This document shows, piece by piece, positions 5,303-42,257 of a DNA stretch of 57,857 nucleotides (its first letter is position 1; each line of letters starts with the position of its first letter). Origin of the DNA: Candidatus Falkowbacteria bacterium (GTDB taxonomy: Bacteria; Patescibacteriota; Patescibacteriia; JACRDY01). The stretch is from contig JACRDY010000041.1 of the NCBI GenBank assembly GCA_016218485.1, positions 1-57,857 of the forward strand, read 5' to 3'. The position numbers and the translations under genes were made by a program. The notes under the pieces are model-generated. The model saw nothing but the letters and a program-made list of their open reading frames with translations, ran no database searches and was not told the DNA's origin.

Positions 5303-5724
5303 TGTTCATAACCAAACTGTCTGGCGGTACCGTTCGCCAGCTCCTGAAGTTTTGCCTGGTAGGCGCGGTCAATACCGCGGTGGACTTTATAATGTACATC
5401 AGCCTGACGCGGGGCTGGAGCTGGTGGGCGGCGCAGTATCTGCTCGCCAATGCGATTGCATTTTTGACGGCCAATATTTTTAGTTTTATTGTCAATAAAT
5501 CGTGGACGTTTGACGATTTTGCCAATCAGTCTTACCATTGGCAGTACCTCAAGTTTTTCCTTGTCAGTGTGACGGCATTACTGTTGGTTGAGGGCGTGCT
5601 GTTTATCACCGTTTACTGGTTCGACGGTTACGATTTGGTGGGTAAGGCGTTGGGTACAGTACTGGCGATCATTTGGAGCTTTGTGCTGCACCGTCGCTGG
5701 ACGTTTCAATCAGTTGAAAGTTAA
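5302..5724 (+). CDS. GtrA-family membrane protein (putative flippase)
   Basis: QLLKFCLVGAVNTAVD, four hydrophobic helices, C-terminal RRWTF. Confidence 0.88.
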   Translation: MFITKLSGGTVRQLLKFCLVGAVNTAVDFIMYISLTRGWSWWAAQYLLANAIAFLTANIFSFIVNKSWTFDDFANQSYHWQYLKFFLVSVTALLLVEGVLFITVYWFDGYDLVGKALGTVLAIIWSFVLHRRWTFQSVES

Positions 5725-5787
5725 AAGCTATCAAGTTGAAAGTTTTGTACTTTTAACTTTATAACTTTTAACTTTATAACTTTAAAC
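5712..5787. repeat. Inverted heptamer array, AAAGTT(A/G) family
   Basis: Left arm gttgaaa/gttaaaa, right arm (aactttt/aacttta)n; same family at 14507 and 31561. Confidence 0.8.
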
Positions 5788-5794
5788 TAACTGT

Positions 5795-6793
5795 ATGGCT
5801 GACAATAAAAAGAATATCGTCGTGCTCGGCGGAGCGGGTTTCGTCGGCTCTCACCTGTGTGATGAGCTGGTCAAGTACCACCATGTCATCTGTGTTGATG
5901 ACTTTATTTCCGGTGAGCAGAAAAATATCGATCACCTGCTGCGCGATCCGAATTTTGAATTTATTAAGCACAATATGGTGGAGCCGCTGGAGCTGGAGAC
6001 TTTGCCGGAGCTGGAACGTTTCAAGCTCAAAGTTTACGGCGTGGCGGAAGTCTACAACCTCGCCTGTCCGACTTCAGTCAAAGATTTTGAGAAAGATCGC
6101 ATCATCACCCTGGAGACGAACGGCTGGGGCACGCGCAACGGCTTGGAAATCGCCCGCCAGTACAAGTCCAAGTTTTTGCATTTTTCTTCTTCAGTTGTCT
6201 ATGGCGGCCGGACGGATGACGTCAAAGTGTTTACCGAAGACTACTGGGGGCATGTGGATTTCCTCTCACCGCGGGCTTGCTATGATGAGGGTCGCCGCTT
6301 TGCCGAGACGCAGGTGGTGACGTACCGTGATGTCTACGGACTTGATGCTAAGATCGTGCGGGTGTTTCGCGCCTATGGCCCGCGGATGAAGCTCTTTGAC
6401 GGTCAGATGCTGCCCGACTTTATTACCGACGCGCTGGAGAATAAGGAATTGGTCATCTACGGTGACAAAACATTTTCCACTTCACTGGTGTACGTCTCTG
6501 ACGTGGTGGATGCAGCCATCAAACTAATGGAGTCTGAAGAACATGGGCCGATCAATATCGGCGGTGTGGATGATTATAACTTGTACGAGGTGGCGCAGCA
6601 GATTGTGACCATGACGGGGTCACGGTCCAGTATTCTGTTTAAAGATCCGCTGTTGTTTATGACGCCGCTCGGTATTCCCGATATCAGTCGCGCCAAAGAT
6701 CTGCTCGGCTGGCTGCCGGTGGTGAGCCTGGCAGAAGGACTGCGCCAGACTATTGATTACACGCAGGCGGAAAAGGGGATGGTGAGGAATTGA
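5795..6793 (+). CDS. NAD-dependent epimerase/dehydratase, UDP-glucuronate decarboxylase-like
   Basis: GGAGFVGSHL, YNLACP, CYDEGRRFAET, YGPRM. Confidence 0.88.
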   Translation: MADNKKNIVVLGGAGFVGSHLCDELVKYHHVICVDDFISGEQKNIDHLLRDPNFEFIKHNMVEPLELETLPELERFKLKVYGVAEVYNLACPTSVKDFEKDRIITLETNGWGTRNGLEIARQYKSKFLHFSSSVVYGGRTDDVKVFTEDYWGHVDFLSPRACYDEGRRFAETQVVTYRDVYGLDAKIVRVFRAYGPRMKLFDGQMLPDFITDALENKELVIYGDKTFSTSLVYVSDVVDAAIKLMESEEHGPINIGGVDDYNLYEVAQQIVTMTGSRSSILFKDPLLFMTPLGIPDISRAKDLLGWLPVVSLAEGLRQTIDYTQAEKGMVRN

Positions 6794-6800
6794 TGATGAT

Positions 6801-6874
6801 TTCAGATTGCAGATTTCAGATCGCAGATTTGTATCGTAGTAACGTTTAATGTCAGCCCAATCTGCAATCTACAA
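6801..6874. repeat. Inverted heptamer array, TGCAGAT/ATCTGCA family (no gene inside)
   Basis: ttcagat tgcagat ttcagat cgcagat ... aatctgc aatctac. Confidence 0.8.
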
Positions 6875-6879
6875 TTTTT

Positions 6880-7545
6880 ATGAATATTTATATCGTTGTT
6901 CCGGCGTATAATGAAGCGCGGCATATTAGTCAAACAGTGGGGGACTTGAAAAAACAGTTCCCGCCGAAAAATATCGTGGTGGTGGATGACGGTTCGGTTG
7001 ACGATACGTTTACACTGGCGCAGACTCTTGGCGTGGTGGCGCTGCGGCACAGGATTAATCGGGGACAGGGCGCGGCCTTGCAGACCGGGAATGAGTATGC
7101 CTTGAGTCACGGCGCAGAGGCGATCGTCCACTTTGATGCGGATGGGCAGCACCAGGCCAGTGAAGTCGGCCAGTGGATTGCGCCGATTATTGCCGGTACT
7201 GCCGATGTTGTACTTGGCTCACGTTTTCTTGGCACGCAGTCGAATATCCCCTTGAGTAAGAAGGTTTTTTTCAAGATCATTATTCCTCTGCACAATCTGT
7301 TTATTGGTTTACGCCTGACTGACCTACACAATGGCACCCGCGTGTTGAGTCGGGCGGCCGCCGAGAAAATCCGGATTACCCAGGACGGTATGGCCCACAA
7401 TTCCGAGATTTCCGGGCAAATCAGCAAGTTTCAGCTGCGCTACACTGAAGTGCCGGTAACGGTTACTTATAGTGAATATGGCCAGGGTCTGCGCGGGGCA
7501 GTGAAGATTTTTAAGGATTTAATGAAACGGGGAGTGGTGGGGTGA
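6880..7545 (+). CDS. GT2 glycosyltransferase (DPM1-like)
   Basis: VVPAYNE, VVDDGSVD, NRGQGAAL, FDADGQH. Confidence 0.92.
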   Translation: MNIYIVVPAYNEARHISQTVGDLKKQFPPKNIVVVDDGSVDDTFTLAQTLGVVALRHRINRGQGAALQTGNEYALSHGAEAIVHFDADGQHQASEVGQWIAPIIAGTADVVLGSRFLGTQSNIPLSKKVFFKIIIPLHNLFIGLRLTDLHNGTRVLSRAAAEKIRITQDGMAHNSEISGQISKFQLRYTEVPVTVTYSEYGQGLRGAVKIFKDLMKRGVVG

Positions 7546-7554
7546 TTGTTAGTG

Positions 7555-7617
7555 GCTGGTAATCAGTAACTAGTAATCAGTAACTAGGAATACAAATTAC
7601 CAGTTACCAGTTACCAA
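7555..7617. repeat. Inverted heptamer array, CTGGTAA/TTACCAG family
   Basis: gctggta atcagta actagta atcagta ... ttaccag ttaccag ttaccaa. Confidence 0.8.
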
Positions 7618-7622
7618 TTTAT

Positions 7623-40870: not shown

Positions 40871-40964
40871 TGGCGGAAGGAGAGGGATTCGAACCCTCGA
40901 TACGGATTTAAACCCGTATAACAGGTTAGCAACCTGCCGCCTTCAGCCACTCGGCCATCCTTCC
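40871..40964 (-). tRNA. tRNA-Ser(GCT), CCA encoded
   Basis: GGAAGGATGGCCGAGTGG...CAGGTT-GCT-AACCTG, long variable arm, GGTTCGAATCCCTCTCCTTCCGCCA. Confidence 0.95.
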
Positions 40965-40982
40965 AAAAGTATTTTCCATTTT

Positions 40983-41225
40983 TTAAAGATCCAATTTTTT
41001 CTTTATCTGTCTACGGCCTTGACCTGTTTTGTAGAATATTTCCGTTTTTCGTGCTAATATCTCTTCAGAGTAAGCTTCATAGTAAACCAACTTCCATGGT
41101 CTGTAAAGCTTTGTAGAGGTAACACGTCCAGTATTATGTTCTTTTATTCTAGTAGCTAAGTTTTTACTAAATCCAGTATATAGTTTATTATTTTTTGTAC
41201 TTTTGATAATATATACATAATACAT
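40983..41225 (-). CDS. Small GIY-YIG nuclease
   Basis: YYVYIIKS...LYTGFS, RIKEHN, TKLYRPWKLVYYE; AT-rich. Confidence 0.9.
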   Translation of the reverse strand: MYYVYIIKSTKNNKLYTGFSKNLATRIKEHNTGRVTSTKLYRPWKLVYYEAYSEEILARKTEIFYKTGQGRRQIKKKLDL

Positions 41226-41334
41226 ATATTTGTAATTTTGTCACTTCCGCTCATAGCCCTTCGGGCTTGAGTTGTACAAAAAATTTACAAAATTTATCTA
41301 GAGTATACTATTCTTAATAATAAAAGTCAATCAT

Positions 41335-41820
41335 ATGGCCAGCAATAAATATGGTGAGGAATTAGCCTCGTGGGAGTTTCCGGAATTCGTCGCTCACGAG
41401 CGGAGCCGGGCGTGGTACGTCATCGCGATCATCATCGGCGGCCTGCTGCTCCTGTACGCCGTCCTGGCCGCGAATTTTCTGTTTGCGGTGATTATTCTAG
41501 TGGCCGCGGTGGTGATCTTTTTGCGCAGCTCGCAGCCGCCCCAGAGCGTACCGTTTGCCCTGTATGAAGACGGCATTCGTATCGGCCAGAAGTTTTATGA
41601 TTTTAGCGAGGTCAAGAGTTTTTGTATCATTTATAACCCGCCCGAGGTCAAGAGCCTGTACTTTAATTTTAACAGCCTGTGGCAGCCCCGGATGCGTATC
41701 CCGCTGGATGACGTTGATCCGCTGTCGCTCCGCGATCTCCTCTTGGAGTATTTGGCAGAAGACCTGGATCAAGAGGATGAGCCGTTTTCCGACGGTATCA
41801 GTCGTTTATTCAAACTCTGA
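41335..41820 (+). CDS. Conserved CPR-type membrane protein (two TM helices plus a PH-like domain)
   Basis: WEFPEF...ERSRAWY, two TM helices, GIRIGQKFYDF. Confidence 0.7.
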   Translation: MASNKYGEELASWEFPEFVAHERSRAWYVIAIIIGGLLLLYAVLAANFLFAVIILVAAVVIFLRSSQPPQSVPFALYEDGIRIGQKFYDFSEVKSFCIIYNPPEVKSLYFNFNSLWQPRMRIPLDDVDPLSLRDLLLEYLAEDLDQEDEPFSDGISRLFKL

Positions 41821-41983
41821 CATTCAAACTCTGACTCTGGACAAATCAGTACTGATTTGTTAAACTGTTGGCACTGTTAGGCGCGTCGTCGCTCCCCGCA
41901 TACGCCTTCGGCTCCTGCGGGGCAGGCAGATGAATAAAGCGATCCGATGGATCGGGGTCGGACGCGAATAGGTTAATACGTAT

Positions 41984-42057
41984 GCGCTCGTAGCTCAGAT
42001 GGATAGAGCGTCAGCTTGCGGAGCTGAAGGTCGCAGGTTCGAGCCCTGCCGGGCGCG
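41984..42057 (+). tRNA. tRNA-Arg(GCG)
   Basis: GCGCTCG TAGCTCAG...TCAGC TT-GCG-GA GCTGA...GCAGGTTCGAGCCCTGC CGGGCGC. Confidence 0.92.
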
Positions 42058-42069
42058 TTTATTTTTCAA

Positions 42070-42136
42070 TTCAGAATTGATAGAGCGCCCCGATGGATCG
42101 GAGAGGTCGTCCGCCGCGGCGGGCCGGGCGCGTTTT
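42070..42136 (+). pseudogene. Decayed duplicate of tRNA-Arg with both arms replaced by palindromes
   Basis: tcag..gatagagcg, aggtcg and gccgggcgcgttt retained; ccgatggatcgg and tccgccgcggcgg substituted. Confidence 0.65.
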
Positions 42137-42137
42137 A

Positions 42138-42257
42138 AAATTAGAAATTGGAAATTAGATATTAGAAATTAAAGACACGGCTTTAACCAGGGTTTTAAAA
42201 CCCTGGTTAACGAAAACGTTGCTGGTAGACAATTTCCAATATCTAATTTCCAATTTC
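42138..42257. repeat. Inverted heptamer array GAAATT(A/G) with a central 28-bp perfect palindrome
   Basis: (gaaatta/g)n ... ttaaccagggtttt|aaaaccctggttaa ... (aatttcc/aatatct)n. Confidence 0.85.

Follow-up and report, generated by a model that had tools for sequence, protein, structure and literature searches.

Contig JACRDY010000041.1 from a Candidatus Falkowbacteria bacterium (NCBI GenBank assembly GCA_016218485.1) was analyzed as a single window of 57,857 nucleotides, covering positions 1 to 57,857 of the forward strand. The window carries a glycosyltransferase cluster, the genes prfA, Sua5, ksgA, metK and recG, and a type IV secretion-like set that includes PrgI, TrsD-like, VirB4-like and pilin genes. 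Many of the spacers between genes hold an arm of tandem heptamers or octamers followed by an arm of the reverse complement, and two of these arrangements include a gene for a four-helix-bundle (4HB) protein of the PF05635/TIGR02436 family. With moderate confidence, we favor a reading in which each pair of arms forms the stem of a small palindromic element. These elements would constitute a family of the intervening-sequence type that resides at operon junctions and includes relatives without an open reading frame (ORF).

The first of the two genes, gene 1 (32978-33346, plus strand), codes for 122 amino acids, and gene 2 (35876-36259, plus strand) codes for 127. They match PF05635 with 60 bits (E 3e-16) and 84 bits (E 8e-24), respectively, at a cut-off of 33.8, and TIGR02436 with 84.8 and 83.4 bits at a cut-off of 24. 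Their structural relatives are the Protein Data Bank entries 2RLD (for gene 1) and 2GSC, each of which was deposited with five chains. More than 8000 clusters matched one PF05635/TIGR02436 query, and exact-sequence look-ups of both 4HB proteins found no other contig.

The gene 1 locus begins at the metK stop codon with a complete short-loop hairpin (32850-32957, plus strand, fold z-score -11.4) that is perfect over 32858-32957 and whose AGATTGC arms of 32 nucleotides are 100% complementary. Gene 1 follows, and after it comes a third arm (33346-33377, plus strand). This arm is a direct copy of the right arm, is 91% complementary to the left arm, and ends 3 nucleotides before the next ATG. An earlier note on this DNA, made from the sequence alone, had described two arrays that contain 4HB genes. 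Both genes are indeed PF05635/TIGR02436 members, but the locus with TGCAGAT units is ordered as hairpin, gene and third arm and is not one enclosing hairpin.

The same note had also taken the TGCAGAT arrays at 6801 and 32849 for the empty and filled alleles of one locus. These are instead different, paralogous loci. The hairpin at 6798-6874 (plus strand), which has GATTGCA/GATTTCA arms and no ORF, carries a 28-nucleotide loop that corresponds, in reverse complement, to the loop of the 32858 hairpin, with about 24 of 28 positions identical by inspection of the alignment, so that the two loops lie in opposite orientation. This hairpin is partly decayed and folds weakly (z-score -2.4) because its right arm retains only about 2.5 units.

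Cassette 2 is composed of a left arm (35838-35875, plus strand) built of TTAGTTTA octamers with GTAAGTT as the outermost unit, then gene 2, and then a right arm (36229-36281, plus strand) built of AAACTAAC/AAACCAAC units with AAACTTAC outermost. The right arm encodes the C-terminal tail and the stop codon of gene 2. The cassette is located between the TrsD-like and VirB4-like genes, and we rejected the possibility that it splits a VirB4 gene. Although the flanking ORFs do match contiguous halves of VirB4 profiles, the junction is a natural one because most of the 150 best relatives of the N-terminal piece are separate proteins of about 210-260 amino acids.

Arrays of this kind are abundant throughout the window. 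Tandem Repeats Finder listed 63 rows, mostly with periods of 7, 8 or their multiples, and 34 non-overlapping arrays with such periods are present, whereas 30 dinucleotide-preserving shuffles averaged about 2.6 and never exceeded 7. On a simple gene map of the window, arrays are found at 18 of 47 gene junctions, all 18 of them between co-directional genes, and these junctions constitute nearly all of the spacers sized 55-200 nucleotides. An inverted-repeat scan showed that the arrays pair up as arms of 20-58 nucleotides. Of 13 candidate hairpins, 12 fold much more stably than shuffled sequences (z-scores from -3.5 to -14.7). As the earlier note had observed, the arms run up to or into stop and start codons. 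At the 14507 locus, for instance, the stop codon of the release-factor gene (14529) is in the left arm and the following ATG (14587) is in the right arm.

All nine array sites listed in the earlier note are present where it placed them and carry the units it gave them. Further sites are located at 55421 and at 7983, 15570, 16294, 17351 and 54376, and the last five of these form an AAGTTCA/CAAAGTT family. Members of this family have loop and internal motifs in common in either orientation, and therefore either whole hairpins were copied or loops were flipped by recombination between arms. The description of the units as several unrelated sequences holds only in part, because AAAGTTA and AAGTTCA share the core AAGTT, and TGCAGAT is a rotation of GATTGCA, the unit typical of the gene 1 subfamily. 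Rfam gave no family match for any hairpin in the window, and no rRNA was found there. We also considered whether the heptamer hairpins are intrinsic terminators and rejected this identity, as none was flagged and the counts were at the level of shuffles. A run of T nucleotides at the end is found only for the 42138 hairpin.

The best relatives of the release factor encoded in the window, at 55-61% identity, come from Kerfeld-, Falkow-, Magasanik- and Uhrbacteria and from other Patescibacteria. On this ground, and with only two sites of the cyanobacterial HIP1 octamer in the window, we rejected a cyanobacterial origin, and the gene content listed above agrees with an assignment to Patescibacteria. 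Several loci of the release-factor relatives (e.g. L008, L010, L012, L017 and L037 among the loci fetched for this study) carry dense period-7 arrays that pair as hairpins and that have their own units. Thus, ORF-less heptamer hairpins are a trait of the lineage and not of this contig alone.

To examine the arms of 4HB genes elsewhere, we used 80 metagenomic loci with gene 1 homologues, which were chosen by protein similarity alone (54-68% identity to gene 1), and scored reverse-complementary arms within 170 nucleotides on either side of the gene against shuffles. Inverted arms exceeded the shuffles in 72 of 78 testable loci, nearly all with period 7, and the median arm length is 32 nucleotides. 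Period-7 arrays reach a density of 4.39 per kb within 200 nucleotides of the ends of 4HB genes, compared with 0.285 per kb elsewhere in the same loci. The earlier note had suggested a test for such an enrichment beside 4HB genes, and the association holds in one direction only: arms accompany nearly all 4HB genes, but about 15 of 17 hairpins in the window are without a gene, and a 4HB gene is present in the other two.

Among all fetched DNA, the distance from arm to arm is bimodal, with 43 pairs separated by 0-100 nucleotides, 56 pairs separated by 350-500 nucleotides, and almost none between. The cargo of the 350-500 nucleotide loops is nearly always a 4HB gene, and this includes divergent 4HB paralogues with the units ATTGGTC, GTTTCTG, AATGTCA, TTTATGA and TAGCATA. 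Arms or arrays were also found at all eight plasmid loci checked from cultured organisms (three from Nostoc, and one each from Planktothrix, Gloeocapsa, Chlorohelix, Bernardetia and Treponema). Examples of 4HB genes in culturable carriers are NPUN_RS35560 on plasmid pNPUN02 of Nostoc punctiforme PCC 73102, which has (AATTCGC)4 arms, and GLO7428_RS25575 of Gloeocapsa PCC 7428. Likewise, heptamer arrays accompany all three 4HB genes met in the release-factor loci of candidate phyla radiation (CPR) and related bacteria, where one of the three genes is cut by the locus end such that the downstream array alone is visible. Viral contigs yielded five gene 1-related loci, four of which have clear arms, and no gene 2-related loci. 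The gene-plus-arms unit recurs across many bacterial phyla.

Relatives of gene 2 are located between nusG and rplK, between pheS and pheT (twice), and between an M50 peptidase gene and MgtC. Clear arms are present for four of five such relatives, wherein the units are about 8 nucleotides long with a TAAGTT core and the alignment scores are 12-19. The relative at nusG-rplK has an arm score of just 11.

Some loci have arrangements that are described here as separate observations. In three cases (L107:713-807, L127:807-901 and L152:170-264), a cassette of the gene 1 subfamily is located directly downstream of a tRNA-Sec gene, and the 42138 hairpin of the window likewise follows a tRNA-Arg gene. 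In L137, 4HB cassettes are found on either side of argC (1243-1914 and 2940-3389), and their proteins belong to the same subfamily whereas their units differ (TTTATGA and GATTTTC). Another layout is seen in L150, L155, L108, L161 (Chlorohelix) and L162 (Planktothrix), where a complete hairpin resides on each side of the 4HB gene and there is not one enclosing hairpin. Arrays in some of these two-hairpin loci are very long, with up to 22 units in L155.

The arms are inherited together with the gene. An arm matches its own partner with a similarity of 0.72, compared with 0.38 for the partners from other loci, and in 32 cases the own partner ranks first among 72. The similarity of left arms is 0.35 where the proteins are 50-60% identical and climbs to 0.9 where they are more than 90% identical. 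Cassettes are found in unrelated loci and phyla, and some that are approximately 80% identical in protein occupy unrelated flanks. When L136 and L138 are compared, nucleotide homology is confined to the region from the outer edge of the left arm through the outer edge of the right arm, and the flanks are unrelated. The two arms also change together. Orthologous cassettes at one locus across related organisms differ by ATTGCCG versus ATTGCTG in every unit of both arms. The earlier note had raised the idea of a cassette of gene plus arms, and the arms at 72 of 78 loci, the homology bounded by the outer arm edges, the arm similarity that tracks protein identity and the bimodal loops all bear it out.

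Between co-directional genes, the cassettes take up the whole of a short spacer, with the stop codon of one gene at one edge and the start codon of the next gene at the other. By a crude ORF call, 48 of 60 upstream neighbors and 37 of 41 downstream neighbors share the orientation of the cassette. In 43 of 60 loci, the end of the host stop codon is no more than 6 nucleotides away from the edge of the left arm, and in 33 of 55 a candidate start codon is equally close to the edge of the right arm. The junctions that the cassettes occupy include nuoA-nuoB, nuoI-nuoJ, argC-argB, an efflux pair and moxR-DUF58, as well as DUF1156-HEPN and DrmD-MmeI in defense operons. Genes of the same type have been noted between the cas genes cmr3 and cmr2, with the repeats unmentioned (PMC3936711). 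A Shine-Dalgarno core is present upstream of the 4HB gene in 33 of 72 loci.

The core and the period of the units are specific to the protein subfamily, with GATT and period 7 for gene 1 and TAAGTT and a period of about 8 for gene 2. For the gene 1 subfamily, the unit logo reads G-A-T-T-(G/T)-(C)-N, and the information content is 1.3-1.6 bits for positions 1-4 and 0.1 bit for position 7, whereas a rotation control gave at most 0.65 bit. Silent sites should be saturated at this level of protein divergence, and therefore the core looks to be selected for its sequence and not for pairing alone. The modal number of units is five in both arms (31 and 29 of 72 loci, respectively). A family member from Xanthomonas is a homopentameric ring according to Lin et al. 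2006, as cited in PMC4990558. The 4HB proteins are basic (median pI about 9.1), and a QL.R.GTSVGANYRAACR motif is strongly conserved among them.

ORF-less rRNA intervening sequences are known in other bacteria, and the 23S rRNA intervening sequence is the closest match for the elements described here. The earlier note had found no feature type it could name for this architecture, but the element of Coxiella has the same build. It is a 428-nucleotide insert with an S23p (PF05635) ORF and a stem of 28 base pairs formed by terminal inverted repeats, and immediately before the ORF there are GACAGAT heptamers in two or three tandem copies, depending on the strain (PMC4990558). RNase III cleaves in vitro within the stem, at the start of the first repeat (PMC4990558). 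ORFs of the same family are also found in rRNA insertions of CPR bacteria (PMC11270868). The rRNA intervening sequences of Leptospira, Coxiella and Xanthomonas share with the window elements a PF05635 ORF in the loop and a stem of about 28-30 base pairs built from terminal inverted repeats, and in Coxiella there are heptamers in the stem region. Location separates the two groups, in that the intervening sequences are inserted in helix 25 or 45 of 23S rRNA, whereas the window elements are located between protein genes or just after a tRNA gene. Moreover, arms of the window type are fully periodic, typically with five units, and RNase III excision is an assumption in their case.

Interpretation of the genes and their arms as cassettes is well supported, and on balance we consider that the arrays form the stems of a family of intervening-sequence-type elements at operon junctions. 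The full form of such an element consists of a left arm of about five tandem units of 7 or 8 nucleotides, a PF05635/TIGR02436 gene of about 120 codons and a right arm of reverse-complement units, whereas the short form has two arms around a short loop. The approximately 15 ORF-less hairpins in the window might then be non-autonomous or gene-deleted relatives. Transcription of the host operon would run through the element, and the perfect stem of the element, about 30 base pairs long, is probably cut by RNase III, if the Coxiella 23S rRNA intervening sequence in vitro is an apt model. The insert would thus be removed at the RNA level and could be tolerated in rRNA helices and between cistrons alike. 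The tandem units may arise by slippage and be homogenized by slippage together with correction from arm to arm.

Binding of the repeats by the 4HB protein, which was the second idea of the earlier note, is plausible, and the conserved GATT core with its free seventh position lends it indirect support. A pentameric, basic protein might recognize the core of its own repeat with one subunit for each unit. This is an attractive reading of the five units per arm, the five chains per structure and the homopentamer from Xanthomonas. Through such recognition, the protein could aid the upkeep, processing or spread of the element.

Several observations weigh against this model. None of the 80 gene 1-type cassettes is in an rRNA gene, and therefore the link to rRNA intervening sequences is one of architecture and protein family only. 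The cassettes encode no recombinase, and no target-site duplication is visible in the single aligned cassette pair (L136/L138), which leaves mobility without a mechanism. Most hairpins in the window are geneless, and the units CTGGTAA, GTATATG, GAAATTA and CATGAAAA lack a cognate 4HB gene there. The authors who described the Coxiella element hold that its ORF is untranslated in vivo (PMC4990558). In addition, only 5 of 55 downstream host genes have a Shine-Dalgarno core, which is about the random rate, and this represents a cost that the model does not explain. Host translation must therefore use coupling across the base of the stem, or processing. Finally, mismatches between arms have no excess of the kind compatible with G·U pairing on the sense strand (44 G·T versus 63 A·C). 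We had examined tolerance of G·U pairs as a sign of RNA-specific selection, and these counts gave no support for it. Selection specific to an RNA stem is thus not demonstrated, and a process at the DNA level fits equally well.

Some of these same observations can be read differently. It is possible, although we find it clearly less convincing than the element model, that the arrays are a regulatory device and not selfish DNA. In such a system, host intercistronic hairpins would set mRNA stability, processing or translational coupling, and 4HB pentamers would be trans-acting regulators that bind five single-stranded units and thereby open or close cognate stems genome-wide. The conserved core with a free spacer position, the modal five units and the strong conservation of a basic protein are all consistent with this proposal, as are the base of the stem that juxtaposes the upstream stop and the downstream start and the downstream genes that lack a Shine-Dalgarno core of their own. 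ORF-less hairpins in the window also share the gene 1 unit (GATTGCA at 6801) or a core like that of gene 2 (AAGTT versus TAAGTT). However, related genomes do not have the elements at conserved positions, and a given cassette is found in unrelated operons and phyla, which better fits a mobile insert. Four unit families of the window are also without a cognate gene there.

Two further explanations separate the gene from its arms. The hairpins might arise in situ by replication slippage and be selected as long intercistronic stems, with the 4HB genes as independent mobile genes that insert preferentially into the loops of hairpins. The many different units in one genome, the emptiness of most hairpins and the heptamer copy number that varies among Coxiella strains would be expected in this case, and slippage plus correction could account for the concerted evolution of both arms. 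We nevertheless judge this unlikely, because the core and period of the units follow the protein subfamily across unrelated hosts, cassette homology in unrelated flanks takes in the arms, and hairpins of the same family share loops in either orientation, so that whole hairpins appear to have been copied. Alternatively, REPIN- or MITE-like DNA elements (MITEs being miniature inverted-repeat transposable elements) could be moved in trans by a single-strand DNA transposase, such as the product of an IS200-like Y1 gene in the window, with the 4HB gene as a passenger. An ORF resembling Y1_Tnp is indeed present at 45203-45898, the window is rich in palindromic repeats, and the lack of a sense-strand wobble bias fits a DNA-level process. 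Even so, we consider this very improbable. The Y1 match (PF01797) is weak, at 25.4 bits for a cut-off of 23, and the palindromes beside the gene belong to other, non-periodic families. Furthermore, the gene carried is in every case a 4HB gene, and the one cassette pair that was aligned showed no target-site duplication.

With regard to REP/REPIN-RAYT systems and MITEs more generally, the likeness consists of short, dispersed, many-copy intergenic palindromes that exist in gene-bearing and gene-less forms with the same ends. The elements described here differ in that their gene codes for a four-helix bundle without known catalytic activity and in that their arms are internally periodic. Membership in the REPIN/RAYT class is argued against by the non-periodic palindromes of other families that flank the window Y1 gene. 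Of the features that define MITEs, terminal inverted repeats are present, whereas a duplication is not visible in the one aligned cassette pair and the parent gene is no known transposase. As a separate observation, the palindromes near the weak Y1 ORF are found at 45089-45149 and 45511-45661, represent two non-periodic families, and have sibling copies at 13199-13275 and 48166-48243. The Y1 ORF and these palindrome families together look like a REP/RAYT-type arrangement.

Another point of comparison is provided by the short tandemly repeated repetitive (STRR) heptamers of cyanobacteria, which were reportedly described by Mazel et al. in 1990. The ATTGGTC arms of one metagenomic cassette are presumably a rotation of STRR2. 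STRR sequences and the hairpin P6b of Nostoc resemble the window arrays in their tandem heptamers, in arms that pair as hairpins, in variable copy number and in extra sequences inserted in the repeats, and STRR-like arms are also present on the plasmid-borne 4HB genes of Nostoc and Planktothrix. The likeness is one of form, because the host belongs to Patescibacteria and the cyanobacterial HIP1 octamer is found only twice in 58 kb. In the literature searched, STRR sequences are not linked to a gene family, and no paper was found that ties TIGR02436 genes in general to inverted heptamer arrays. A search for STRR unit sequences returned nothing useful. The published precedents are heptanucleotide repeats in the tRNA-Leu intron of Nostoc, which pair as hairpin P6b (PMC3488679), and intergenic heptamer repeats catalogued in Beggiatoaceae and cyanobacteria (PMC4679880).

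Two protein systems deserve mention because of the proposed binding mode, and the homologous fold in one case. Diversity-generating retroelements have an accessory protein, Avd, whose fold is homologous to that of the 4HB proteins and which forms basic pentamers with nucleic-acid-binding activity. Gene 2 has weak matches to the corresponding models, but its scores of 26.6 bits for NF033474 (cut-off 80) and 20.5 bits for PF22296 (cut-off 40) place it outside this group. A Pfam scan of 40 ORFs of the window gave no reverse-transcriptase match, and a template/variable repeat pair was likewise not seen. The trp RNA-binding attenuation protein (TRAP) is a ring oligomer that binds single-stranded RNA, with one short core motif per subunit and variable spacers, and that competes with a hairpin. 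TRAP has an unrelated fold and serves as an analogy only, and the likeness is hypothesized from five units per arm and a pentamer.

The remaining hairpins of the window are as follows. An ORF-less hairpin with AAAGTTA-type arms (5712-5786, plus strand, z-score -6.0) occupies the junction of a GtrA-family gene and an epimerase gene, and the upstream stop codon is in its left arm. An ORF-less hairpin with CTGGTAA/GTAATCA arms (7552-7616, plus strand, z-score -3.5) is located between a GT2 glycosyltransferase gene and a DUF2304 gene. A composite hairpin of the AAGTTCA family with a nested G+C-rich palindrome spans 7983-8130 (plus strand), and an ORF-less hairpin with GTATATG/GGTATGT arms (9271-9345, plus strand, z-score -6.5) is found at the junction of two glycosyltransferase genes. 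The hairpin that takes in the release-factor stop and the next ATG (14507-14591, plus strand, z-score -9.1) is ORF-less and has AAAGTTAT arms of the AAAGTTA family. Arms of the same AAAGTTAT type form an ORF-less hairpin upstream of metK (31566-31658, plus strand, z-score -5.5).

Three plus-strand members of the AAGTTCA family lie between 15570 and 17461. One is between an epimerase gene and the Sua5/YrdC gene (15570-15694, z-score -8.2), the next has arms of 58 nucleotides and is between the Sua5/YrdC gene and ksgA (16294-16426, z-score -14.7), and the third is downstream of ksgA (17351-17461, z-score -5.3). The fifth member of the family is located within a minus-strand operon (54376-54512, minus strand, z-score -7.2). 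Also on the minus strand, a hairpin of CATGAAAA octamers, whose arms of 40 nucleotides are 95% complementary, occupies the junction of M48 peptidase and LemA genes (55421-55524, z-score -11.0). Lastly, the ORF-less hairpin at the junction of tRNA-Arg and recG (42138-42263, plus strand, z-score -10.5) has GAAATTA arms and a nested G+C-rich stem in its loop.

Other repeats and ORFs of the window do not conform to this pattern. Three heptamer arrays are one-armed, with no reverse-complement partner found nearby. One of these (30965-31010) consists of 6.6 copies of CAAATCC/CAAGTCC within an ORF of 478 amino acids, although the ORF call may be wrong. The others are an AATTGGA array within a glycosyltransferase ORF (8612-8648) and an AAATCCC array in a spacer (15534-15563). 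The 478-amino-acid ORF and one of 955 amino acids, neither of which has an NCBIfam family, follow an ORF of 2838 amino acids without a Pfam match (18701-27217). A small G+C-rich palindrome of the GGCCTTGAGCTCAGGGCC type is nested in the 7983 hairpin (8075-8107) and is found again beside the 30965 array (30937-30962), and this recurrence suggests that small elements were inserted inside repeat arrays. A short ATTCGTA-based repeat with a small hairpin is present at 11896-11931, and in the relative locus L008 the 4HB gene at the start is followed by an array of the same ATTCGTA unit. An element of about 180 nucleotides that is bounded by 23-nucleotide inverted repeats (TGAGATGGTTGCAAAAC...) exists in two copies that are 79% identical (38182-38361 and 40114-40293), each of which occupies a 200-nucleotide spacer and has no Rfam match. 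At 40618-40702, ARAGORN predicts a third tRNA-Ser with an unusually placed anticodon, which is unreported by the Rfam tRNA model at the gathering threshold.

PF05635/TIGR02436 is a very large family, and its function has been unknown since the ORF was first met in rRNA intervening sequences about thirty years ago. The tandem heptamers of cyanobacteria are a similarly old puzzle. A tentative proposal, which goes beyond the reading favored here, is that TIGR02436 proteins are sequence-specific binders of tandem repeats, with a pentamer on five heptamers, and that together with their arms they constitute a widespread mobile element without a conventional transposase. Intervening sequences in rRNA, the cyanobacterial heptamers and the ORF-less hairpins of Patescibacteria might then all be forms of it.

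The association itself accounts for 4HB genes that interrupt nuo, arg, pheST, nusG-rplK, cas and BREX/DISARM-type clusters. The signature of arm, gene and arm is usable by annotators to recognize a new class of insert, and such arrays may mislead tools that search for repeats. Most importantly, nearly every 4HB gene is enclosed by inverted arms of about five copies of a heptamer that is specific to its subfamily, which points to a precise nucleic-acid partner and therefore makes the function of these proteins directly testable with a defined ligand.

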